Virus record (IMG/VR): IMGVR_UViG_3300025016_000004
DNA: 64,000 nt
Source: a virus
Taxonomy: Duplodnaviria; Caudoviricetes
Direction: 5' to 3' (one strand)
Shown here: in pieces, positions 22,806 through 64,000 of the stretch
Position numbering within the stretch: position 1 is the first letter of the stretch
Layout of the letters: each line of letters starts with the position of its first letter
Notes under the pieces: model-generated
What the model saw: only the letters and a program-made list of their open reading frames with translations
Told to the model about the DNA's origin: nothing
The model's database searches: none
Made by a program: the position numbers and the translations under genes

Positions 22806-23924
22806 CTAATGGCTCACGTTAGCGTACAAAGGGTTGTCCCTAACCCCGAAATTCTTTATGTTATATGCAGCGTTTACATCTCTATCAATTGAATTACCGC
22901 ACTTATCACAATCATAAGTTCTATCTAAAAGTTTTAAATCTTTCTTGTGGTTTCCACAGTTAGAACATACTTTACTGCTTGGTTCAAACCTTCCAATTAC
23001 AACAAGATTTTTACCTTGCCATTCAGTCTTATATTCAAGCATTGTTCTTAATTGTCGCCAACCCATATCAGATATTGCTTTAGCTAAATTATGGTTCTTA
23101 ACCATATTACTAACAGACAAATCTTCCAATACAATTGTATTATAAGATTTAACTAATTCAGTAGATATTTTGTGCAAGTAATCAGTCCTTTGGTTACGAA
23201 TTTTTTCTTGCAGTAATGCTACTTTTAATTTTTGTTTTTCTCTATTTATTGAGTCTTTCTGTTTTCTTGCAAGGCTTCTTTGTTCAACTCTTAATCTTCT
23301 TTGTTGTGATTTAAAGAAGTTTTTATTTTCATATACTACACCATCAGAAGTAATAGCTAAATCTTTAATTCCAAAATCAATACCAACAGATGTTTCAGTT
23401 TTAATTGATTTTTTCTTTGGTTTTTCGGTTTGAGTATCAACCAATATTGAAACAAAATATTTACCAGTTACTGTTTTAGTTAATGTAACTCTTTTAGGTA
23501 AACCTTTAAATTCTCTGTGGTAATCAATAGCAACTTCTTTTAATTTAGGTAGCTTTAGTATTCCCTCTTTAAACGATATTTCAAATCCTTGTGGAAACGT
23601 AATTGACTGTTTGGAATACTTATTTTTAAATTTAGGAAATTGACCTTTACCCTTAAAAAAGTTTTGATATGCTGTATCTAAATTGATTATGCTATGTTGT
23701 AATACTTGACTTGGACATTCTTTAATGTAGTCAAATTCTTTTCTCAATTCTGGAAGTTGTTTTATTAAATCATATTTAGATATTGATTTTTTATTTGAGG
23801 CATACGCAACAGTCTTGGTTTCCAACCCCAAATTATAGACAAGTCTATTTACACCAAAATACCTTTGTAGTTGGTCTTTTTGGTCATCTGTTGGAAATAT
23901 TCTGTATTTGTATCCTTTAAGCAT
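22806..23924 (-). CDS. tnpB: IS605 TnpB RNA-guided nuclease
   Basis: HTH YKYRIFP, GIDFG (RuvC I), LEDL, SKVCSNCG Zn finger, DRDVNAA. Confidence 0.95.
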   Translation of the reverse strand: MLKGYKYRIFPTDDQKDQLQRYFGVNRLVYNLGLETKTVAYASNKKSISKYDLIKQLPELRKEFDYIKECPSQVLQHSIINLDTAYQNFFKGKGQFPKFKNKYSKQSITFPQGFEISFKEGILKLPKLKEVAIDYHREFKGLPKRVTLTKTVTGKYFVSILVDTQTEKPKKKSIKTETSVGIDFGIKDLAITSDGVVYENKNFFKSQQRRLRVEQRSLARKQKDSINREKQKLKVALLQEKIRNQRTDYLHKISTELVKSYNTIVLEDLSVSNMVKNHNLAKAISDMGWRQLRTMLEYKTEWQGKNLVVIGRFEPSSKVCSNCGNHKKDLKLLDRTYDCDKCGNSIDRDVNAAYNIKNFGVRDNPLYANVSH

Positions 23925-38965: not shown

Positions 38966-39311
38966 ACTAATTGCTGAATTTATGGGTTATTCCAAACACC
39001 CCGATTACAATGGATATGAAATTGATGGTGACCCATATCATGCTAGTCAATTAAGATATCATGAAAAATGGGATAAATTAATGTTGGTGGTTGAAAAAAT
39101 CGAATCAATCAAAGATGAGCATCATGGCTATTTCGCTGTATATATTGGTGCTAACGGGTGTACCATTCAAGGTACTAAATTAAGGCTTGATAAACCAATT
39201 GCTAATCCACCAATATATTTTAATAATGTTGTATTAAGTACAAAGTTAGAAGCAACATATCAGGCGGTACTTAATTTCATTAAATGGTATAATAAACAAA
39301 TAAAAAAATAA
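38943..39311 (+). CDS. Hypothetical phage protein
   Basis: ORF track. Confidence 0.65.
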   Translation: MKTEKINELIAEFMGYSKHPDYNGYEIDGDPYHASQLRYHEKWDKLMLVVEKIESIKDEHHGYFAVYIGANGCTIQGTKLRLDKPIANPPIYFNNVVLSTKLEATYQAVLNFIKWYNKQIKK

Positions 39312-51365: not shown

Positions 51366-51665
51366 AAAAGGGAGCGTAAAACCCACAGGTCTTTAGCCTG
51401 TGGGATGTAAGCGACTAACCTTGTGAAAGGATATACTCACGAATGGTATCAGGAGAAGCCTCACCGATTGAGCAAACGAAATAACCATCTGACCAAAAAG
51501 TATGTTCTTTCCAAAAATGTTTAAATAAGAATGACCTGTGAGATGAACGCCAAATGTGATAAGTAATTTCGGGGTTAGGGACAACCCTTTGTACGCTAAC
51601 GTGAGCCATTAGGCTATGCGTTGTGCAAGAAGCCCACACATCTTTTTAGTGTGTGGGTAGTTCAC
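51366..51665 (+). mobile_element. 300-bp internally deleted IS605 derivative (tnpA tail plus tnpB/omegaRNA tail)
   Basis: Right ~100 bp nearly identical to the 3' end of tnpB 22806-23924; TTTAT| left flank. Confidence 0.88.
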
Positions 51666-51847
51666 TACATAACATAGGGGTCAATTGGTATAATGGTCAG
51701 GGTAAATTATATAAAGAGTTTGGATATCCACCTTTCTGGAATGAACCTGAAAACCTAGAATTAATATAATATTTTACGTCTTTTTATTACTTTTCAGTAT
51801 ATTTATAGTATAACTGTAATAAGTTTGATGTGTAAAGTTATAATATA

Positions 51848-52229: not shown

Positions 52230-52595
52230 TTGAGTAAAAAAGTAGACACTAATGACATTAAAAGTCTAATCGATAACATTCATGAGACTTTTGACCAATT
52301 ACTATCATTAAGAGAACAAGCTAAAAAAGAATTATCTGAATTAGATAAAGACTTATCAAATCAATATCATAATATTGAAGGTACTGAAATTGACCATATG
52401 TGTGATTCACATTTTATGGTCATGAAACTAAAAGATATTCTATATCAACGAAGAACAGCTAAAATTAATCATACGTTATTGGAATCATTTATCACTGCCC
52501 TAGATTTAAATATGAGGAAAACTAAAAAACGGACCGCTGAGATAGTTAAACGACATGACGAAGTAATACAAGAAATTATAAATAGAGCCAAGTGA
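52230..52595 (+). CDS. Hypothetical coiled-coil protein
   Basis: Stop supplied by IS right end; the empty site would read RAK-TAA. Confidence 0.65.
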   Translation: MSKKVDTNDIKSLIDNIHETFDQLLSLREQAKKELSELDKDLSNQYHNIEGTEIDHMCDSHFMVMKLKDILYQRRTAKINHTLLESFITALDLNMRKTKKRTAEIVKRHDEVIQEIINRAK

Positions 52596-52596
52596 A

Positions 52597-53793
52597 CTAC
52601 CCACCCACAGCATAGCTGATGGGATGGGCTTCTGGTTTCATAGAGTGTGCTTTGTTGCCAAAGTCTGATTTACTCTCCACCTTTGTAATCGCAAGTTCCT
52701 CACGATATATTTTTAACCCTTCATTTAAGATATTGGTGCTTGCATTTAAATCACGGTCTAATTTATGACCATTATTGCAAGTCCACTCTCTATCTGAAAG
52801 ATTTAAGTCTTGATTTATATATCCACAAACACTACAAGTCTTACTTGAGGGATACCAACGATTGATTTTAACAACAGTTTTATCATTCCAATTTGCTTTG
52901 TACTCAACAAATCTAACAAACGTACCCCAACTTGCATCAGAGATATGTTTGGATAATTTTCTGTTTTTAACCATTCCTTTAATATTTAAATCTTCAAGGC
53001 ATATTACATCATAATTATTTACAATTTCATTACTTACTTTATGTAATACATCTTGCCTTGTGTTTGTGATTTTCTCGTGAATTAAGGCAACTTTGAGTTT
53101 TTGTTTTTCAAACCCATTACTACCATTCTGTTTACGAGAAAGATGTTGTTGTGCTTTCTTTAATTTTCTTTCATATCTTTTTGTGTATCTATTATTTTTA
53201 TACTTTATTCCATCAGAAGTGATAGCAAAGTCTTTTAAACCTAAATCTATTCCAACCGATTTATAAGTTTTTTTACTTGGATGATATTCTTGTTCAGTGA
53301 AAATTGAAACAAAATACTTCCCAGTTGGAGTTTTAGATATTGTGAATTTACCCACCTCACCTTTAATTTCTCTATGAATATTCACCTTAATACCACCTTT
53401 AAATTTAGGTGCGTATATTCTGCCATCCATAACTTTAGTATGTTGTGGTACTGTAAATGTATTTTTATTCTTTTTTGATTTAAATCTTGGGAACTTAGCG
53501 TTACCTCTAAAGAAGTTCACATAAGCGGTGTCTAAAGAGCGTAAAGCAAATTGAAGTGTTTGGCTATTCACTTCTTTCAACCAAATGGTGTCTTCTTGTT
53601 TTTTTAATTCAGTTAATGTTTTGGCTTGTCCGTAATAGTTATCGGTTTTTTTATCTGCTTGATACTGTTCCTTACGTTCATTTAAAAAGTGATTGTAAAT
53701 ATACCTAACACAACCAAAGTGCTTATCCAATAAGGTTTTCTGCTCCTTATTAGGTAATAATTCAAATTTATATGTTCTGTGTATATTCTTCAC
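52597..53793 (-). CDS. tnpB: IS605 TnpB
   Basis: GIDLGL, CLEDL, SKTCSVCG, DRDLNAS. Confidence 0.95.
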   Translation of the reverse strand: MKNIHRTYKFELLPNKEQKTLLDKHFGCVRYIYNHFLNERKEQYQADKKTDNYYGQAKTLTELKKQEDTIWLKEVNSQTLQFALRSLDTAYVNFFRGNAKFPRFKSKKNKNTFTVPQHTKVMDGRIYAPKFKGGIKVNIHREIKGEVGKFTISKTPTGKYFVSIFTEQEYHPSKKTYKSVGIDLGLKDFAITSDGIKYKNNRYTKRYERKLKKAQQHLSRKQNGSNGFEKQKLKVALIHEKITNTRQDVLHKVSNEIVNNYDVICLEDLNIKGMVKNRKLSKHISDASWGTFVRFVEYKANWNDKTVVKINRWYPSSKTCSVCGYINQDLNLSDREWTCNNGHKLDRDLNASTNILNEGLKIYREELAITKVESKSDFGNKAHSMKPEAHPISYAVGG

Positions 53794-53940
53794 TCTATTA
53801 TTAAATAGTCTAAACTTTTGTAAAAGTACAATATTTTATACGATTTGTTAAGTTTTTTGTAAATTTATTTCATTTGATGCCATATTTTGTTTAAATCATT
53901 TCGTCTTTGGTTGTAAATAATTTAAACAAAATACTACATT

Positions 53941-54345
53941 ATGCAATCAAATTACATTTCTACAAATCATTCAAAACATTATCTAAAAGCACATATCATA
54001 TTGGTTACAAAGTATCGTAAACCATTATTAGTTAATCAACTAAAGGAAGATATGTACTTAATATTCAACAATATCATAGATAATTCAGATTTTAGTGTAG
54101 AGGTCTTCGAGTCAGATATAGACCATATACATTTCCTTATCCGTTACATACCACGTCTTTCAATATCACAAATAGTCCGTAGGTTAAAACAAGAATCTAC
54201 ATATCGCATTTGGCAATTATACCCAACCTTACTTCGTAGAGAATACTGGTACAAAGATATGTTCTGGTCAGCAGGTTATTTCGTTTGTTCAATAGGTGAA
54301 GCAAGTCCAGAAACCATACGTCAATATATCTTATCACAAGGTTAG
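53941..54345 (+). CDS. tnpA: IS200 Y1 transposase
   Basis: DHIHFLI; near-identical protein to 24071-24475. Confidence 0.95.
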   Translation: MQSNYISTNHSKHYLKAHIILVTKYRKPLLVNQLKEDMYLIFNNIIDNSDFSVEVFESDIDHIHFLIRYIPRLSISQIVRRLKQESTYRIWQLYPTLLRREYWYKDMFWSAGYFVCSIGEASPETIRQYILSQG

Positions 54346-54694
54346 TGTGTCGCTTACATCCCATTGGTGAAACGACCAATGGGTTTTACGCTCCGTTTCG
54401 TATAAATTAAAAATTATTTGGTTTTTTCGTTTTTATAGCACCTGAAACAATCAGCCCGTTTTATGGCAATATTCGTATTCCCAGAAAATTAAAGAAAAAA
54501 GTTAAAGCCTTTGTCGGCACCTCATGGAGTAATAATGATAATGCTAGTAGATTATGGTATTACATGGAAAAAAGTAATCCAAATTATAAGCGATTTTTAA
54601 TAAAACAAATCTGTGAAGAAAAAAAACCAAGATTTTATTAGGATATATCAAACATTCTTTTTATCTTTGTATCATAATAATTAAAAACTACATC

Positions 54695-55180: not shown

Positions 55181-55439
55181 TAAGATAAATACAAAAATGA
55201 AAAGTAACACAGGACAATTGATTAGATGTAGAAAATATAATATTAACAACAGCAATAGTAAAAACATCTAACAGTTATTGCTTATACAATTTGTTAGCCC
55301 AGTACGCTTTATTAGTAGAATTTTAAATTTGGAATATTTATATATAAAATAAAGGACAAATGGAATTGAGAAAATTTATAAAAACAATAATCAAAGAATA
55401 CTTAATGTCTGGTGCGGATTTTAAACAAAAAACTTTGAT

Positions 55440-57185
55440 ATGAAAAACGAACGTAGTAATAATATTTTTTTGAGCGAGGGCATTAACGTACTGTCTTTAT
55501 TTGATGGCATTAGTTGTGGACAAGTAGCTTTAGAACGTGCAGGAATTAAAGTAAATAAATACTTTGCTTCCGAGATTGACAAACACGCAATTAAGGTAAC
55601 TCAAAGCAACCACCCAAATACAAAACAGATTGGTGATGTAACCAAAGTAAAAGTAAAATTACTTTACTTATCGGAGGTTTATTCGTATATTTGCAATTAT
55701 GATAACAATTTACAAAGCAAAATTTCCGAATGGGAAATATTATATTGGCTTGACAAGAAATACGCTATGTCAACGAAAGTCGGAACACAAAAGTCGAATG
55801 AAGGACAAGAAGTACAAGAATTTACCACTTTACAATGCATTGAGGAAATACGGTTTTCAAACAATAGTATGGGAAGTATTACTAAAGGTAGGAACAATAC
55901 AGGAAGCAGAAAGAATGGAGATGAAAATGATTGTAGAAAACCCTTTAAACTACAATGTAGCAGCTGGGGGTATGACTATGAGTTTCACACCCGAAATTTG
56001 CAAGAAAATATTAGAGAGTCAAAAGGGAGTGCCAAAGACAGATATTCAGAAAAAGAGAATATCACAAACATTGAAGAAAAGATTTCAAGACAAAAAGGAG
56101 AGGGATTTAATTTCAAAGAAAACCAAAGAAGCGATGCGGACTCCAGAAGTGAGAAAGAAATACTTGGAGAGTCGGATGAAGATAGATTACGAAGAGAGGT
56201 CAAGAAAAAAGAAAGAGACCGAAAAGAAGAAGAGATTAATTCTATTGAAGAAATTATCAAAGAATTACAAAGATGGGATGAAGTTGACAAAATTGAAAAG
56301 AATTACTGGGATTTCTTACGACTTCATAAGGAGGAACAAGTCACGGTGGTTGAGTATGAGGGAGGATTAAACGTATTTAAAGGAAGAATAGACCTTTTAT
56401 GTGGTGGTTCTCCTTGCCAAGGATTTAGTTTTAGTGGTAAGCAATTGAACTTTGAAGACCCACGAAGTAAACTATTCTTTGAATTTGTTCGGTTGCTTAA
56501 TGAAGTGAAGCCTAAATACTGGCTACTTGAAAATGTGGTAATGAAGCAAGAATACCAAGACGTAATAAGCCAACATTTGGGTGTTGAGCCAGTAAAATTG
56601 AATAGTTCTTTAACTTCTGCTCAAAACCGTGTGAGATTGTATTGGGCAAACTTCGATATTACTGAACCAACCGACAAAGGAATAGGACTTGAAGATATTT
56701 TGGAAGATACTGAAATGATTGGCCCAAGTGCGATACGTGGCAGAAGATTGAATAAAGCCACTATTTTAGGGCGTAGATTAGATGAACTAGGTAAACGACA
56801 AGATTATGACAAAACCATACCAATTACGCAATGCCTTGAAGTAAGAGCAACTAATCGAGATAAAAGTAATTGCCTTACTACCGTAGCAAAAGACACGGTT
56901 TTAACGACAATGGAAATAGGGCGACACCCTGACGCTTTTAATAGGAAATTACCATTTAGGAACTACAATAAAATTGAAAGGTGTAGGTTGATGAATTTGC
57001 CTGACAATTATTGTGATGAGATAAGTGATAACCAAACAGTAAAAGCGACTGGTAATGGTTGGGAAGTTGGAATGATTACTCACATATTTAACCAAATGGC
57101 TGCCCAAGCAGACAAAGAGCGTGGGGAAGAAAAAAATATTATTACGGCTTATATGCACGAACCATCATTGAAAACGGGAACGTAG
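55440..57185 (+). CDS. DNA (cytosine-5) methyltransferase with ~245-aa insert before motif IV
   Basis: FDGISCG, GGSPCQ, ENV, QNRVRLYW, GNGW. Confidence 0.9.
   Translation: MKNERSNNIFLSEGINVLSLFDGISCGQVALERAGIKVNKYFASEIDKHAIKVTQSNHPNTKQIGDVTKVKVKLLYLSEVYSYICNYDNNLQSKISEWEILYWLDKKYAMSTKVGTQKSNEGQEVQEFTTLQCIEEIRFSNNSMGSITKGRNNTGSRKNGDENDCRKPFKLQCSSWGYDYEFHTRNLQENIRESKGSAKDRYSEKENITNIEEKISRQKGEGFNFKENQRSDADSRSEKEILGESDEDRLRREVKKKERDRKEEEINSIEEIIKELQRWDEVDKIEKNYWDFLRLHKEEQVTVVEYEGGLNVFKGRIDLLCGGSPCQGFSFSGKQLNFEDPRSKLFFEFVRLLNEVKPKYWLLENVVMKQEYQDVISQHLGVEPVKLNSSLTSAQNRVRLYWANFDITEPTDKGIGLEDILEDTEMIGPSAIRGRRLNKATILGRRLDELGKRQDYDKTIPITQCLEVRATNRDKSNCLTTVAKDTVLTTMEIGRHPDAFNRKLPFRNYNKIERCRLMNLPDNYCDEISDNQTVKATGNGWEVGMITHIFNQMAAQADKERGEEKNIITAYMHEPSLKTGT
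55699..56370 (+). CDS. GIY-YIG/NUMOD3-like homing endonuclease overprinted in the +1 frame of the methylase
   Basis: TIYK..KYYIGLT..R..EH..LYNALRKYG..YNV..GG; own TATATTTG promoter at 55686. Confidence 0.88.
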   Translation: MITIYKAKFPNGKYYIGLTRNTLCQRKSEHKSRMKDKKYKNLPLYNALRKYGFQTIVWEVLLKVGTIQEAERMEMKMIVENPLNYNVAAGGMTMSFTPEICKKILESQKGVPKTDIQKKRISQTLKKRFQDKKERDLISKKTKEAMRTPEVRKKYLESRMKIDYEERSRKKKETEKKKRLILLKKLSKNYKDGMKLTKLKRITGISYDFIRRNKSRWLSMRED

Positions 57186-57271
57186 CACTTGCAGCTAACG
57201 GTTGTGTGTATGAAACGTAGCCATAGTAAACAGTTGATATAAACCACAGACCTTGATTGGGTATGTTTTAT

Positions 57272-57454
57272 AAAGGAGCGTAAAACCCATTCATCGCTTT
57301 AGCGTGAATGGGATGTAAGCGACAAAATTTTTATTAACTCTGGTTGTGGTATGCAGTCGGAGTATAAACAAAAACGGGATGAGGCGTTACCATTAGGTGA
57401 GTCTGTGACCCCCGAAGCCCAACCCATCGCCTCTGGCGTGGGTGGGTAGTTCAC
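57272..57454 (+). mobile_element. 183-bp non-autonomous IS605 derivative (promoter deleted)
   Basis: Same ends and tail as the 37952 copy. Confidence 0.88.
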
Positions 57455-57560
57455 GTTACATTTAAACCAAATCAAATTAAATCGGTTGATAATGATGGAA
57501 CTTGGGATATTGGGGATAATAACATTTTTTCTTAAATTTGTGTGGTGGGAGAAAAAATAA

Positions 57561-57594
57561 AACAATGAAAGATTTGAAACAATGAAAGATTTGA
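57561..57594 (+). repeat. 17-bp tandem duplication spanning a start codon
   Basis: AACAATGAAAGATTTGA x2. Confidence 0.9.
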
Positions 57595-58142
57595 AACAAT
57601 TTATAAAAACAACGATGCGAGAATTTTTGAATGAGAATAGAGTTTATCATTTATCCGATAATCCAAATTTAAAAATTGATAAAAACTATAACCCGAAACA
57701 AGGACAATTGGGTAAAGGTTTTTATGTAACAAAAAATATTGATGATTGGGGTATAGAATCTATTGGAAAACGTGATTATATATATGTAATAGAAAATTTT
57801 GAGGAATTAAGAATAGCCAAACCAAATGAACAACCAAATAGGGAACAACTCGTTGATTTTGGAATTAAAAATGGGTTTTATGAAATGGATAAGGTAATTA
57901 AACCTAATGGTGATGTTGTTAAGAATTTAGATGGGAATGATTTAATTAGACCTATTGAAACTGATAAATATAAAAAATATGCAACATATATAGACCCGAT
58001 GACTGGTAGTAGTATTGATTTTTTAGAACAAGAATATTTAAAATCAAAAGGCTTTGATGGCAAAGAACCATATTATAGCAGAGATGGTCATCAAATAATT
58101 ATATGGAATTATGATAAAATCAAATTAAAAAGAATTAAATAA
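57582..58142 (+). CDS. Protein with FIKTTMREFLNE leader and possible ART-like domain
   Basis: RVYH..GQLGKGFYVT. Confidence 0.6.
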   Translation: MKDLKQFIKTTMREFLNENRVYHLSDNPNLKIDKNYNPKQGQLGKGFYVTKNIDDWGIESIGKRDYIYVIENFEELRIAKPNEQPNREQLVDFGIKNGFYEMDKVIKPNGDVVKNLDGNDLIRPIETDKYKKYATYIDPMTGSSIDFLEQEYLKSKGFDGKEPYYSRDGHQIIIWNYDKIKLKRIK

Positions 58143-58364
58143 AGTGGGTGGGATTTTCTTTTAAATTTTTCAACCGAAATGTTGGTTAGAACGATGAACT
58201 GAACACTTACACATAACGTTTTGCGTGTATATGCCAGGTGGCGATTAGAAGCACTTACCTTTCAATTACACAGAATGTTTGATAGAAGAACGAATGTTGA
58301 ATAAACAACAGAACTCCCACTTGCATATATACCTTGTTATAACACGTTTTTAAAAATTAAAATT

Positions 58365-58691
58365 ATGAAAAGAAATATAACCGAAACCCCTGAAAAGTGG
58401 GTAATATTAAAACTATCAAACAATTATTATAAAGTTTTTGGAACTTGGAGTGGTGATTATTTAAATGGTGACAGGTGGAAGTTAAATTCTGGAATTGAAA
58501 AAGTTGAACAAGATGCTGATTTCTATTATTTTATCGGTTTTAGCGGTAGTTGCTACAAATGTCATAAAAAGAGTTATGGAACTGCAACTTCTTATGGATT
58601 AGGTATGTTGAATAAAATAATAGAAGATAGTAATAGTCAGATTGAATTAGTTGAAGATGAGGATATTGATGATTGGTCAAATGGGTGCTAA
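58365..58691 (+). CDS. Hypothetical cassette protein
   Basis: Stop lies in the next TAAC site. Confidence 0.7.
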   Translation: MKRNITETPEKWVILKLSNNYYKVFGTWSGDYLNGDRWKLNSGIEKVEQDADFYYFIGFSGSCYKCHKKSYGTATSYGLGMLNKIIEDSNSQIELVEDEDIDDWSNGC

Positions 58692-58752
58692 CGTTTAGTG
58701 TATGGCAAGTAAGCCACGCACGAAACTATCAAATTACTAATAACTTAATAGA

Positions 58753-59025
58753 ATGAACGAAACTTTAAATAACGCAGAAACCCACCATGTTTTATACACG
58801 GTGTTAGGCACAGTTTTATATCAAATTTGTGCAAAAGGAAAATATGCTTCATTTGATGGAAAAACCAAATATTATAGTAAAAACGCTTACATTAACAAAC
58901 CATCACAAGATGAAATAGATTCTTTTATTGATAAGTGCTGTAACAGTAAACATCCTAAGAATTTATATGATTTGGAAAAGGAAACAGTTGAAATATTTAT
59001 TGTTGAATTGAAACTTGCTCGTTAA
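58753..59025 (+). CDS. Hypothetical cassette protein
   Basis: Starts inside a palindrome (..LYTVLGTV). Confidence 0.6.
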   Translation: MNETLNNAETHHVLYTVLGTVLYQICAKGKYASFDGKTKYYSKNAYINKPSQDEIDSFIDKCCNSKHPKNLYDLEKETVEIFIVELKLAR

Positions 59026-59101
59026 ATAGTGTATAACGGGTTGCATATAACCTAAGTAGCGGACTTTAAAACCAAATGTTGAATATAAAAATAAACTTGA
59101 T

Positions 59102-59314
59102 ATGAAAGAAAAATGGACAATTAACATACCTAACCCGCTATTTTGGTTATATGCTGTTATGTATCGTTTTCATAAGTGTAAATTTGAAAATAAATTGTAT
59201 GATATACCTATGGAAAACAATACAAATTTTCTAGTAACACAATGCAGATGTGGAAAAACTAATATGGTAAGAGCACACAGGGAAAGTGAAATGTATAAGG
59301 ATTGGATTAAATGA
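59102..59314 (+). CDS. Hypothetical cassette protein
   Basis: Starts inside a palindrome. Confidence 0.55.
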   Translation: MKEKWTINIPNPLFWLYAVMYRFHKCKFENKLYDIPMENNTNFLVTQCRCGKTNMVRAHRESEMYKDWIK

Positions 59315-59520
59315 TACATACCAAGTAGAACAAAATGGGCACTGCGTGTATCAAGGAACTGAAAGTGATTGTAATGAATGGCTTAAATGTCAGTTAGGGT
59401 ATTGTGGCTCTCGTGCCGAATTATTAAGCACAAAACTTAATTTGGAACAATAAAGAAAAACAAAAAGAATTTTAGGGTGGAAATTTTAATTTGGAATATT
59501 TATATATATAAAGAAAATAC

Positions 59521-60109
59521 TATGAGTGAGATGAAAAACCATATTAAAACTACCTTAAAAGAATTTGTTGCTAAAATTATTAAAGAAGAACTTGAAAATG
59601 ACACATATGCTTCATTTAAAGGTGTAAAGCCATATAAAGAAAGATTATTAGATTTTAAAAATTCAATAAAAACATTCCACGATTTAGATGATGATAAAAT
59701 ATTGAAATGTATTGATTTTTTTGGGTGGGAAGGATTTGAAGATGAAGAAGAAGCTTTTAAAGAATTAAAAGAAAGGGTGGAATTTTATAAAAAATTACCA
59801 AATCCTTCAATAATGTATAGAGCAGTTGGTGTTAAAAATAAAAAACTGATAGACATTGAAAATATTGGGGAACACGTTACACCATATAAATGGGCTATTG
59901 ATGGAGATATGCTTTTAATGATTGGTAGTGAGAACTGGGATAATGATGTAGTGCCTTATATAATGGAACTTAGTGTTCCTTTATCTGAAATAGATATTAT
60001 TCAAACAATAATTCAGAATTTATCATTTCCAAATGAACATGAAATAAATTTGAAAAATAAAGGAAAAGGTGCTAAATTTGTAAAAGCATATAAATTAAAA
60101 GGTTTTTAA
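59521..60109 (+). CDS. Protein with HIKTTLKEF leader
   Basis: ATATTTATA upstream; ATG at 59521. Confidence 0.7.
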
Positions 60110-60233
60110 AAGTGCGTTGGGAAAATTCTTTTTGTTTTTCATCACAAATGTTAAATAGAAGGACTGAACTAAGGCATGGAGCATAACGGCTGCAAATATA
60201 TTGTCGTTTTAATGCAATATATTTGTTGTTAGC

Positions 60234-60856
60234 ACCAGTACGGTAATTTAAGATAAAACTTGATTAAATGGATAATAATTAGTATATTTGTAAAAAAAAT
60301 AAATTTATGGAAAAACAATGGAACTGGTTTGAAAAAACCAATAAAAAAGATGCAATTAAAAATGAGTTACAACCATTAATTACTGAAATGATTAGTGATG
60401 ATGTACAGTGTTTATTTATTAGCCCACAAGTTGGCGTAATTTTAGAAGAGTGTGACAATGTGTTTATAATACCTAATGATGAAATAATCCATCATAACGA
60501 AAATTTAACCGTAGAACATTTTTTTAATTTTTATAAAAATGATGAGCCGATAAGGGTTTACATTGATAGAAACAAAGAAGATGTTGAAATTATTGATTTT
60601 CGTGGACATAAAGAAATTGTTAATACTTTAAGAATTGGTAGTGATGGATTTTTTACAAAATATAGCAATAAACTTTAAATCGAAGCACTTTCGTAGTATT
60701 GGTGCTAACGGTTGGGTGTATGAGAAGGTTTGCTTGTATAAACTTTCAAATTACCACACTGTTAATAGCAAACTTTCTTATACACCTTGTTATAACCAGT
60801 ACGGTAATTTAAGATAAAACTTGATTAATTGGAAAATAATTAGTATATTTGTAAAA
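60234..60856 (+). repeat. ~62-bp direct repeat carrying a promoter (60234-60296, 60795-60856)
   Basis: ACCAGTACGGTAATTTAAGATAAAACTTGATTAA..AATAATTAGTATATTTGTAAAA after two attC-like sites. Confidence 0.85.
60307..60678 (+). CDS. Hypothetical cassette protein
   Basis: ORF track. Confidence 0.65.
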   Translation: MEKQWNWFEKTNKKDAIKNELQPLITEMISDDVQCLFISPQVGVILEECDNVFIIPNDEIIHHNENLTVEHFFNFYKNDEPIRVYIDRNKEDVEIIDFRGHKEIVNTLRIGSDGFFTKYSNKL

Positions 60857-61015
60857 TAATGAATTATGGAGAATAGAAGAATTATTAAAGTAGAAGTTCC
60901 AAAAGAAATTTGGGATGCACATATGTCTATTTTTAATTTTAGAAAAGATATATTAGGTGCTTGGATGGAAAGCGTTAGAAAAGTAATTAACGAAATGACA
61001 TTAACAAATTAATTT

Positions 61016-61345
61016 ATGGATAATAGTTTATTAATATTTGGTAATGAAAAACAAAATTACACTTCAGATATATTTTATATTGAAAATGATAATGTTTATT
61101 TTACCGAAGTAAATGTTTTTAAATTAAACGGAAACATCTACGCAATAGATGATACTTGTAAAGTAGATAGAAATGATATAGTTGATGGAATTAACAATGG
61201 TGATGATGTTATAATTAAGATAGATAGTTCTTTTTTAGTTGCAGTTATAATACCAAGGAGTTTAGAAACCAAACTAAAAAACGCAATTGATAATGAAGAT
61301 TATGAATTAGCAAAAATAATAAATGATAAAATTAAAAACAAGTAA
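61016..61345 (+). CDS. Hypothetical protein with C-terminal UVR-like motif
   Basis: LKNAIDNEDYELAKIIND. Confidence 0.6.
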   Translation: MDNSLLIFGNEKQNYTSDIFYIENDNVYFTEVNVFKLNGNIYAIDDTCKVDRNDIVDGINNGDDVIIKIDSSFLVAVIIPRSLETKLKNAIDNEDYELAKIINDKIKNK

Positions 61346-61828
61346 AATGGAAAATTTAACAATTAAAATCACTATTAGTGATGATGAAAAAGAAATCAAA
61401 GCTACAAACATCAATGTGGGTGATTATAAAAAAACTAAAGACTTACATGGTATCTCTTTGGTTGATGAAATGGTTAATGAATTATTATCTACAATCGAAG
61501 CGGATAAGTAGTATTGGTTATAACGTATCGGTTGTATGGTTAGTGCGATTTAATAATAATAAACTTTAATGAAATGACAGAAGCAGAGTAAATATTCGAA
61601 AAACACATTGGGTTAAATACTGAATTAGGTTATTTGCCTTTTGAAAGACGAACCTTTTAATTATTAACCGCCCTTTTTCTTTTATTTTTTTTGAGCGTGG
61701 GCAAATGCTTGTAAAAGCAATTATTTACAAAATAATTAAAATATTTTGCTTTTTTCTTTGGTAGTTACAAAATAAGTTATATATTTGTAGTGTAATAATT
61801 AATTAATAACAATTTAAAACACAAAATT

Positions 61829-62014
61829 ATGAAAACTTTACATTACATCTTAAACACAAAAACAGACGAAAGCTTTGATACAATAGAAATGAAATTTTAT
61901 CCTAATAATTGGGAACCTGAAATGGAAGAGGATAAAGATTATTTACAAAGCTTAATTGACGAAGACCCAGAAAAATTTAAAAACTGTATAATCGAAACAA
62001 GAACTTTTGAATAA
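61829..62014 (+). CDS. Hypothetical protein
   Basis: ORF after promoter. Confidence 0.6.
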   Translation: MKTLHYILNTKTDESFDTIEMKFYPNNWEPEMEEDKDYLQSLIDEDPEKFKNCIIETRTFE

Positions 62015-62423
62015 TGGCTTACTGGTTTTTAAATAAGCAAACAAAAGAGCCGAGAATATTCTCGACTCTTTGCCTGTTATGTGTGAAGAAATTACTGAAC
62101 TTGATAAGCAAAGTTTAGAGTACCATTTTAGCAGACTGAAAAAAGAAGAATTTGAAAACGATAATTACAGAATTGTTAAGCGTAATCTTGAGAGGGGTGG
62201 AAAAAAATAAAAGAAAAAGATTAGAAGCACTAAACGTTGATACAGCACGGAATTAGGCATAAACTATATACCGTGTTGTGCAATCGTTTTAATGTTGCAC
62301 AACGTTTTTCGGCTTGGTGTCTGTTATTTTGCCTTGCAGACATTTCAAGTTTTAGATAAATTTAATAGGTAAAATAATAGCACCAAACCGCTGTTAGTGG
62401 CTGGTGCGGTAAATTAAACGAAA

Positions 62424-62675
62424 ATGAAATTTCATAAAACAAAAGATGGTAAAAAAATTAAGTTGACTGATTTAGAAACGAATCACTTGAAAAATATCAT
62501 TAAATGGATTGAACGGAAAGCAAAGGAAGGATTAACGGTAGGAATGGGCGGTGGCTCGTGTGCTGAAGATATGTGGTATGATGAGGAAACTTATTATGGC
62601 AAAGAAGCTAAAAGCCAACTTAATTTTTCAGACTACAAAGCTGAATTGAAGCGGAGAGTTAGCACTTGCCACTAA
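62424..62675 (+). CDS. Hypothetical cassette protein
   Basis: Stop TAA coincides with a TAAC site. Confidence 0.65.
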   Translation: MKFHKTKDGKKIKLTDLETNHLKNIIKWIERKAKEGLTVGMGGGSCAEDMWYDEETYYGKEAKSQLNFSDYKAELKRRVSTCH

Positions 62676-62727
62676 CGTAGATAGGCTATGAATAGTAAGG
62701 CGATTTTAAAACACAAAACTTTGAATT

Positions 62728-62916
62728 ATGAAATGGATTAAATTAAAAGACCGAAAGCCATCTTGCGAGATTGATGGTGAAAAGATGTTGGTTTACAGAA
62801 TAATGAATGAAAGCCAAGCGAGTATGGCAATAAGCATCCTTGATACGAAGATGATTAAATACAGTAATGAGGATGAAACTTGGTGGATGGCTTTACCTGA
62901 TGAACCACGAACCTAA
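62728..62916 (+). CDS. Small protein (DUF551-like WIKLKDRKP..WMALPDEP) inside an attC-like loop
   Basis: N- and C-terminal motifs; flanked by complementary arms. Confidence 0.6.
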   Translation: MKWIKLKDRKPSCEIDGEKMLVYRIMNESQASMAISILDTKMIKYSNEDETWWMALPDEPRT

Positions 62917-63120
62917 GCCTTATTATTTATAGCCTTTGTTGTAAAATCGTTTTAATGTTTTACAACGATTTGCAGCTAACCGAAGTTGGCGATTACGAAG
63001 CACAAAACTTGAATTTAAAAAAAATGTATAATCGAAGCATAAACGTTGATATAACCACTGAACCGCCAATTTTGGTTAGGTGCTGTTATAAGCCGTTTTT
63101 CTTCACAAATTTTAAATAAA

Positions 63121-63327
63121 ATGTATAATAAAATACCAGATAACAAAGTAAAAGAAGCTATAAAGGATTATAGTATTACCAAATTGAAATTATTTATAGA
63201 TGCAATGGATATAGCTAATGAAAAAGCAGAAAGAGGTTCAGATGTTCGTTTCCAAACTTATGATGCTAAACAAGTAGCTATCGACTTGCTTTATGAAAAG
63301 ACGTGTAGTTTCTTAAATGGCTTATAA
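63121..63327 (+). CDS. Hypothetical cassette protein
   Basis: Stop coincides with a TAAC site. Confidence 0.6.
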   Translation: MYNKIPDNKVKEAIKDYSITKLKLFIDAMDIANEKAERGSDVRFQTYDAKQVAIDLLYEKTCSFLNGL

Positions 63328-64000
63328 CGGAAAAATGTAAAAAATCGTTGCGATATGAATGAAGAACTATTTGGAAAACTGCACGAACAAGAAGAATATG
63401 GATTGTTTGGGAAGGAACACGAACGCCAGCAATGTTTTTTACATAGTGTTAGCACCAGTGCCTACACGAAATTAAATATTAAAACTTAAATAAAAATACA
63501 ATGGCAAAAACAGTAAAATTACCCGATAACATTTCCGAAGAAGAATTAGTAAGGCTTTCTAAAATGAAAGAACTTTATATGACATACACCAATGAAGGAT
63601 TAAAAGATGATGAGTATGAACAAATGAGGCAATTAGCAGAAGAATTATCTTACTGTTTTGCTGTCGATACGAAGGTCTGATGGCATTGGTGCTAACGGTT
63701 TGCAGATAGGCGATGTGGCGGATTTTGGAACGCTGAACTATCTGTAAGCACTTAACTTGATTTGAAACACTAAACTTAATATTAACCGAGAAACCCGCCA
63801 TAGTGCTGTTATGTGCTGGCCTTCTCAAAAACTCAAATAGAATGATAAACAAAATAATTGAAATCGCATTTAGTGGCTTTTGGCCATTTGTAGGAATGAT
63901 GATATTACTAAACGGAGCGGCCTATTTTGCTGTAAACGGTTTGGTAAAAATGTGGAGCAGGTTTATGAGAATGTTAATGGTTAGGAAACATGGTTGGCCG

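Follow-up and report, generated by a model that had tools for sequence, protein, structure and literature searches.

Between 55.2 and 63.8 kb of a 64,000-nucleotide (nt) stretch of a Caudoviricetes genome (IMG/VR record IMGVR_UViG_3300025016_000004; the whole stretch is referred to as the window), small open reading frames (ORFs) on the + strand are separated by imperfect palindromes that open with (T)AAC(G) and close with (T)GTT(A). The locus raises the question of whether a phage can maintain a gene-cassette array of the integron kind and, if so, with which recombinase. Integrons are the textbook cassette-capture system; the defining feature of their integrase is an additional domain that recognises bases flipped out of folded single-stranded DNA. 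An initial annotation, made from the sequence alone, had proposed an integron-like array of cassettes whose recombinase lay outside the window. This proposal stood up to analysis: the array continues for a further 22 kb and ends at a phage tyrosine recombinase, consecutive cassette ends are complementary, and breaks between related sequences fall at the AAC core. With good probability, the stretch belongs to an integron-like cassette platform, of which it is the promoter-distal portion, in a giant phage of Flavobacteria-type hosts; it is not a canonical integron.

A family of covarying hairpin elements

At least 84 contigs of IMG/VR, nearly all of them low-GC phage contigs, contain the 17-mer TGTTAGCACCAGTACGG that is located 3' of two elements in the window. 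This 17-mer was nearly always preceded by a hairpin of the same construction whose stem sequence differs and whose 11-base loop, TCGTTTTAATG, often recurs. For the counting of base pairs and for a covariance model, 32 members of this family were aligned. The AAC and GTT cores are invariant among all 32 members, as is the core helix, while in the inner stem changes on both sides occur at 18 of 20 pairs and 91% of the cells remain paired. The corresponding covariation values were reached by 0 of 500 shuffles, and slid registers came nowhere close. In the window, matches to the model were confined to positions 55256-63460, all on the + strand, with no matches in positions 1-55000. The repeated elements noticed in the initial annotation are therefore real.

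As the covariance model misses elements with long loops, these were added by eye and with an energy scan. Arm-alignment and energy scans for AAC...GTT palindromes proved too noisy in A+T-rich DNA, taking in tRNA genes and losing weak elements, and the covariance model was used in their place. Rfam at gathering thresholds returned tRNAs only, and cultured phage genomes searched with megablast had no match to the region. The 17-mer had 24 matches in bacterial genome collections, approximately the number expected by chance; approximately nine of these carry real elements, all on short contigs from metagenome-assembled genomes (MAGs) that resemble phage DNA. With matches near chance and the real ones on phage-like contigs, chromosomal arrays are not claimed. 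In many IMG/VR contigs (L017, L022, L028, L035 and others) translation of the right arm and 17-mer gives the N-terminus (..LAPVR) of a C-5 methyltransferase with its start codon in the loop, so that the site can also serve to encode protein.

The array within the window

The part of the array within the window represents the initial 8.6 kb of an approximately 31-kb array of about 50 small cassettes with at least 48 elements. From a reading of the sequence, with coordinates fixed by script, 13 complete hairpin elements, one half element, and two 'empty' junctions were located at 55270-63810:

55270-55295, + strand: first, short hairpin element at the array boundary, AAC...GTT, followed by AGCCCAGTACGC and a promoter-like box (55322-55346); covariance-model match at 55256-55307, E = 0.03
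57197-57457, + strand: hairpin element with its right arm split by a gene-less insert of the IS200/IS605 type (~57273-57455); partial covariance-model match at 57209-57272
58215-58338, + strand: hairpin element; covariance-model match at 58201-58347, E = 4e-5; energy scan -17.6
58690-58805, + strand: hairpin element with the stop of ORF 58365-58691 in its TAAC core and a right core GTTAGGC; read from the sequence, missed by the covariance model
59035-59158, + strand: hairpin element, homologue of 62964-63087, with the predicted start of ORF 59102-59314 in its loop; covariance-model match, E = 1e-6; inverted repeat 90% complementary
60185-60230, + strand: minimal hairpin element whose loop is the conserved TCGTTTTAATG, with AGCACCAGTACGG and a promoter-like box of the Bacteroidota type (60257-60295) 3' of it; covariance-model match, 56.6 bits, E = 1.6e-12
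60707-60791, + strand: member of the commonest hairpin subfamily, with a promoter-like box (60818-60856) 3' of it; covariance-model match, 103 bits
61508-61545, + strand: half element, consisting of the left flank GTAGTATTGGTTAT and an AAC core (61522-61524) without a right arm; from the sequence
62233-62277, + strand: short hairpin element; from the sequence and energy scan
62278-62300, + strand: 'empty cassette' of GTGCAA, TCGTTTTAATG, and TTGCAC between a GTT core and the following AAC core; from the sequence
62301-62395, + strand: hairpin element; covariance-model match, E = 0.003; blastn blocks with contigs L054 and L080 begin exactly at 62301
62674-62940, + strand: hairpin element with a 215-nt loop that encloses a 62-amino-acid (aa) ORF (62728-62916); inverted repeat 89% complementary over 19 nt; energy scan -25.0
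62941-62963, + strand: second 'empty cassette' of GTAAAA, TCGTTTTAATG, and TTTTAC; from the sequence
62964-63087, + strand: hairpin element; energy scan -28.4; blastn blocks with contigs L016, L048 and L027 begin exactly at 62964
63326-63450, + strand: hairpin element with the stop of ORF 63121-63327 in its TAAC core; covariance-model match, E = 3e-6
63694-63810, + strand: hairpin element, exactly past whose AAC core (63696) strain variant L094 diverges; energy scan and contig comparison

Several details of the initial annotation are borne out by this list. The back-to-back empty junctions exist and are built alike (GTT, 6 bases, TCGTTTTAATG, 6 complementary bases, AAC), a gene does lie within one loop, the stops of three ORFs (ends 58691, 62675 and 63327) fall inside a TAAC core, and predicted ORF starts are found inside hairpin loops at 58753, 59102 and 62728. 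The 11-base sequence of the empty junctions (60204, 62284 and 62947 in the window, many IMG/VR loci, and Polaribacter phage P12002L) forms the loop in minimal hairpins and the entire content of 'empty' cassettes, with variable surrounding stems, and may be a binding site or a minimal cassette remnant. The flank of the half element is, as judged by eye, complementary to the beginning of its own cassette, ATAACCAGTAC at 60792. In the loop of element 62964-63087 (63026-63056), the first codons of the downstream gene (ATGTATAAT) are joined directly to a cassette-end motif (CGAAGCATAAACGTTGATA), a fusion that looks like the scar left by a deleted cassette body. An exact copy of a left-flank 13-mer, TTGGTGCTAACGG, at 39145-39157 was excluded as an element, as it is coding (IGANG) and lacks a partner arm, and may represent either a relic or the origin of the motif.

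The gene-sense strand folds

The initial annotation referred to a fold of the bottom strand, and on this point the evidence runs the other way. Among the non-Watson-Crick cells of the stems, 106 are G.T (102 with G on the 5' arm) compared to 3 A.C. Based on DNA energy parameters, the + strand hairpin is more stable for 41 of 48 elements (Wilcoxon p = 6e-8). Just inside the core helix, the bulge measures 2-5 nt on the 5' arm (mean, 3.9) compared to 0-2 nt on the 3' arm (mean, 0.7), and is longer on the 5' arm in 46 of 47 elements. Because the G.T cells become mismatches on the complement, and from the asymmetry of energy and bulge, the folding strand is the gene-sense strand and not the bottom strand relative to the ORFs. 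The folds of 47 elements had no conserved single extrahelical bases. The suggested likeness to attC sites thus holds for the AAC and GTT cores and the imperfect palindrome, and fails for the extrahelical bases, in whose place the 2-5 nt 5' bulge is found.

Cassette ends are complementary and breaks fall at the core

If the units between hairpins were once circular, their two ends would be expected to complete a fully paired site when joined, and complementarity between the ends is the signature expected of such units. Comparing the 12 nt past each hairpin with the 12 nt ahead of the next hairpin, a mean of 9.09 of 12 positions pair, with 10 or more paired in 24 of 47 pairs. The flanks of a single hairpin (6.29/12) and unrelated pairs (6.02/12) served as controls, and 0 of 5000 permutations reached 9.09. 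The end complementarity was repeated in six other contigs (8.75 vs 6.16). As the flank sequences differ between cassettes, the pairing of the ends represents covariation across an ORF. The wobbles in this pairing (29 T.G, 9 G.T, and 1 A.C), with the recurrent T.G, again favour the + strand.

Two natural breakpoints were located at the AAC core. A co-occurring strain variant (L094) is identical to contig L093, which overlaps the window, through the C of AAC (window 63696) and unrelated from the next base onwards. The second concerns a 506-base block shared with phage G001 at 98% identity, the end of which coincides exactly with the AAC core; by contrast, DNA ligase identity between this phage and G001 is only 56%. 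From these identities, the block appears to be a recent transfer, adjoining the recombinase in G001 and lying mid-array here. Many blastn blocks with other contigs also open at the T or A of TAAC (60706, 62301 and 62964), including twelve with other phage contigs that begin at 60706, the T of TAAC, and the blocks shared with 11 other phage contigs at the array boundary begin within 55270-55291. Cassette order had been proposed as a point of comparison among relatives; cassette content varies between strains and phages with breaks exactly at the AAC core. Four contigs compared for junctions had only short-sided joints between paralogous cassette ends, with one contig of X24 ending at 63696, and the joint 55476->57114 reflects the paralogy of methyltransferase cassette ends.

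The array ends at a tyrosine recombinase

An exact 44-mer from the DNA of the window had no match in IMG/VR. The array was followed past the window via public contigs that encode identical proteins. The window and L093 are 100% identical over 10.5 kb except for one 30-base indel (57327 vs L093:3797-3827) inside a gene-less IS605 derivative, and the overlaps among L093, L096, and L099 have 100% identity. Small + strand ORFs and matches to the covariance model run on to L099:12772, past which there are an N6 methyltransferase cassette, a long-loop element around an 81-aa ORF, and a terminal AAC. A tyrosine recombinase of 269 aa (L099:14003-14812, + strand, PF00589) follows 58 bases past the terminal AAC. 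Its start corresponds to approximately 86483 in window coordinates, 22.5 kb past the window end, and the search for a tyrosine recombinase beyond the window that had been recommended at the outset was in this way answered. No elements were detected downstream of the recombinase gene with the covariance model on L099.

The enzyme scored below every equivalog cut-off: 136 bits for NF040815 (XerA-type; cut-off 220), 77 bits for the XerC model (cut-off 335), 72.4 bits for TIGR02249 (integron integrase; cut-off 265), where only profile positions 9-180 of 315 were covered, and 32 bits for NF011946 (cut-off 435). The closest solved structures are of archaeal XerA (PDB 5hxy and 4a8e), and PDB 2a3v (IntI4) aligns to residues 13-157 only. 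Judged from these comparisons, the recombinase is Xer/XerA-like and not an IntI. A homologous recombinase (268-286 aa; 30-33% identical to the L099 enzyme over the full length) occurs in four of the five giant phage contigs with the 17-mer. In G001, G002, and G003 all of the elements are upstream of the recombinase gene and on the same strand, with none downstream. The terminal AAC lies 45-70 bases ahead of the recombinase start in four phages and is followed by related A+T-rich sequence, which reads AACTATAWTATATA in G001, G002, and G003. This conserved recombinase-proximal sequence is a candidate attI-like site.

DNA sites or RNA signals

Several observations weigh against an integron-like platform. 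Approximately one third of the consecutive element pairs are weakly end-complementary; most of these have gaps >500 nt, in which elements have probably been missed. The left edge of the 98% identical block shared with G001 is a promoter/start junction and not a core, and ordinary recombination between shared promoter modules therefore also reshuffles genes here. No circle or excision junction was seen in material that consists of assembled contigs (n = 24) only, and the link between the window and the recombinase is a walk across contigs from different samples, albeit with overlaps that are 100% identical. Both the relative G004 (96%-complete) and phage P12002L possess elements and no detectable recombinase. 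Further, G.T pairs on the sense strand fit a hairpin that acts in mRNA equally well, and the asymmetry alone cannot separate DNA from RNA.

The last of these points leads to the alternative that the hairpins are RNA signals in the sense transcript, either as terminators or insulators or for processing of the RNase III type, as between T7 early genes. They would then be comparable to the Promoter Early Stem Loop (PeSL) motifs, with their promoters, and shuffling would occur via homologous recombination only, the route that has been suggested for hyperplastic regions in T4-type phages. The G.T pairs would be G.U pairs in such a transcript, promoter-like boxes (predicted from consensus only) follow several of the hairpins, a promoter/start junction marks one edge of the 98% identical block, and T4-type phages are known to carry PeSL motifs (PMC2839356, PMC4122927). 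What RNA signalling leaves unexplained is the covariation of cassette ends that lie 150-1200 nt apart across an ORF, the natural breakpoints exactly past AAC, the confinement of the elements to one locus in a >300-kb genome with genes and operons everywhere, and the tyrosine recombinase at the end of the locus in four phages. As a full account of the locus it is considered improbable, though an RNA role could exist alongside the DNA role.

Comparison with known cassette systems

The integron-like platform shares many features with classical integrons (PMC8946536): small cassettes in tandem bounded by imperfect palindromes, AAC and GTT cores, an unpaired region beside the core, and a variable stem and loop. 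In both, one strand folds preferentially, the cassette ends are complementary, the crossover maps to the core, and one end of the array is occupied by a tyrosine recombinase of the Xer/IntI clade with a conserved non-hairpin site alongside. When read on the strand opposite the ORFs, the likeness extends to the order and polarity: the recombinase points away, a candidate attI-like site is next, crossover is placed at the far end of every site, and the folding strand is opposite (PMC8946536).

The differences are equally specific. The phage recombinases are short (268-286 aa), at 72 bits compared to the cut-off of 265 for integron integrases, and only the N-terminal half aligns to IntI4. The phage sites lack conserved extrahelical bases and instead have the 5' bulge of 2-5 nt and recurrent T.G wobbles, and their outer (R) stem is approximately 12-14 base pairs (bp), not 7. 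The phage ORFs are on the folding strand and point toward the recombinase, and many cassettes have their own promoter-like boxes, whereas classical cassettes are mostly promoterless and are read away from intI from a common Pc promoter. The carrier is also different, a giant phage of the lytic type. Measured by what IntegronFinder takes as an integron, the array has the core palindromes and the core boundaries, and has neither an IntI with the additional domain nor extrahelical bases on the bottom strand.

Clusters of attC sites without an integrase (CALINs) have been described in virulent phages (Qi et al. 2023; PMC9892861). On a strict reading along these lines, the cassettes would have been captured from a bacterial integron and would carry true attC sites mobilised by a host IntI. 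Such a reading draws on the AAC and GTT cores, the imperfect palindrome, and the variable loops, and on the fact that HattCI called one member of the present family, P12002L_attC1, an attC (PMC9892861). However, of six sites P12002L_attC1 was the only one without a verified IntI1 junction (PMC9892861), conserved extrahelical bases are absent, the sense strand folds, the arrays own a non-IntI recombinase, and in bacterial genome collections the motif occurs on short MAG contigs only. An origin as a strict CALIN is accordingly rated as very unlikely. P12002L_attC1 has the same architecture and the same TCGTTTTAATG loop as the elements of the window (PMC9892861), and the covariance model located five family sites in Polaribacter phage P12002L, beside methyltransferase genes. 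The published site belongs to the phage hairpin family. Compared to the CALINs of Qi et al., which were treated as attC sites lacking an integrase, the array described here differs in its approximately 50 cassettes and its own recombinase, and a folding strand and cassette polarity have been assigned to it; methyltransferase cargo is common to both.

With PeSL regions (PMC2839356, PMC4122927) the array shares small ORFans in a plastic region of a large phage, stem-loop and promoter flanks, and some junctions at promoters. It differs in that PeSL shuffling is ascribed to homologous recombination with no dedicated recombinase, while the present locus has core-exact breaks, end covariation, and a linked tyrosine recombinase. 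The best sequence matches to the recombinase come from archaeal XerA and bacterial XerC/XerD, which are similar to it in length and domain layout. The Xer enzymes, however, resolve dimers at a single double-stranded dif site, and the phage enzyme is linked to tens of hairpin sites. A full-text literature search, with incomplete coverage, identified no paper on such arrays linked to a Xer-like recombinase.

A model for cassette exchange

A cassette extends from one AAC core to the next and contains a hairpin site, usually a promoter-like box of its own, and 1-3 small ORFs. Each hairpin site is made up of a core helix (TAAC(G)/(T)GTTA), a 5' bulge of 2-5 nt, a variable stem of 12-24 bp, a loop, and the return arm. 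In the proposed mechanism, the + (gene-sense) strand would fold when single-stranded, probably during replication, and the phage Xer/XerA-like recombinase would most likely bind the core helix and bulge of the folded sites. Strand exchange would take place inside TAAC, on the 5' arm. Recombination between two sites would release a cassette circle, which could then be inserted through recombination with the conserved site just upstream of the recombinase gene. Catalysis by the 269-aa enzyme, the single-stranded nature of its substrate, and resolution by replication are all presumed in this scheme. As several cassettes carry promoter-like boxes, their expression would not depend on the position in the array.

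On balance, and with less assurance than for the platform itself, it is suggested that the phage arrays constitute a separate lineage of cassette capture, in which single-stranded hairpins are recombined by a Xer-like enzyme that lacks the supposedly necessary attC-reading domain and in which the strand would be chosen through the 5' bulge and the G.T wobbles instead of extrahelical bases. Giant phages of Bacteroidota would thereby own a self-encoded exchange of ORFans and methyltransferases, and their arrays could be a sister or a precursor of bacterial integrons. The logic of integrons (hairpin sites, core-exact crossover, circularisable cassettes, and an enzyme at the end of the array) recurs in lytic-type giant phages with a recombinase of Xer size and a mirrored polarity. 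If the enzyme acts as proposed, hairpin-based cassette capture is possible without the IntI domain, large phages of Bacteroidota have a mechanism by which approximately 10% of the genome can be turned over as ORFan and methyltransferase genes, and a compact new pair of recombinase and site is available. It would also call for a new reading of at least one published phage 'attC' that was not recombined by IntI1.

Cargo and neighbouring genes

Three DNA methyltransferases are the only cargo with a recognisable function, one of which lies in the window:

55440-57185, + strand: cassette gene for a C-5 cytosine DNA methyltransferase that carries a GIY-YIG-like insert in frame; Pfam PF00145, E = 2.6e-31

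The GIY-YIG-like segment occupies 55699-56370, between conserved motifs of the methyltransferase. A search of Pfam and PHROGs with ten cassette proteins returned no family beyond the methyltransferase and one weak match to a UVR motif, and an anti-defence role for the cargo, as had been supposed, is a guess. The C-5 methyltransferase and an N6/N4 methyltransferase in the same array (L099:12799-13632) are unrelated and 30 kb apart. The two cassettes share a near-identical sequence in the first ~14 codons (M-K/E-NERSNNIFLS) and from the last ~25 codons to the cassette end. From this pattern, it looks as if the enzyme core alone may have been exchanged inside a fixed methyltransferase cassette frame. 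Several cassette proteins open with a shared leader, M..L/M-K/R-x-FIKTT-I/M-K/R-E-F/Y-L (55361-55444, 57582-58142 and 59522-60109 in the window, and L086:43-651). The carriers of the leader include a 27-aa stub at 55361, and a homologue in G002 adjoins the recombinase. A search of IMG/VR for relatives of an upstream 161-aa protein found none.

Insertion sequences of the IS200/IS605 type occur upstream of and within the array:

22806-23924: second tnpB
51370-51667 and 57273-57455: two gene-less IS605 derivatives with ends as in the complete IS605
52590-54400: complete IS200/IS605 element just upstream of the array, with tnpB (52597-53793, - strand) and tnpA (53941-54345, + strand); from the sequence

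These neighbours suggested that the hairpins could be miniature transposable elements, of the palindrome-associated (PATE) or miniature inverted-repeat (MITE) type, moved by the TnpA and TnpB of the window. TnpA acts on single-stranded hairpins, and a complete IS605 lies just upstream, with a second tnpB and two gene-less derivatives also present. The ends of IS605, when compared, differ in sequence and architecture from the AAC...GTT elements, and the PATE/MITE reading was rejected after this comparison; it is the least credible of the alternatives. One IS605 derivative (57273-57455) is itself inserted in a hairpin arm. The hairpin elements all share one orientation and stand in tandem at a single locus, and transposition would not give rise to the covariation of their flanks within each cassette. 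The ends of the derivative in the hairpin arm match those of the complete IS605 at 52.6-54.4 kb, and both gene-less derivatives are located 3' of a TTTTATAAA-like sequence.

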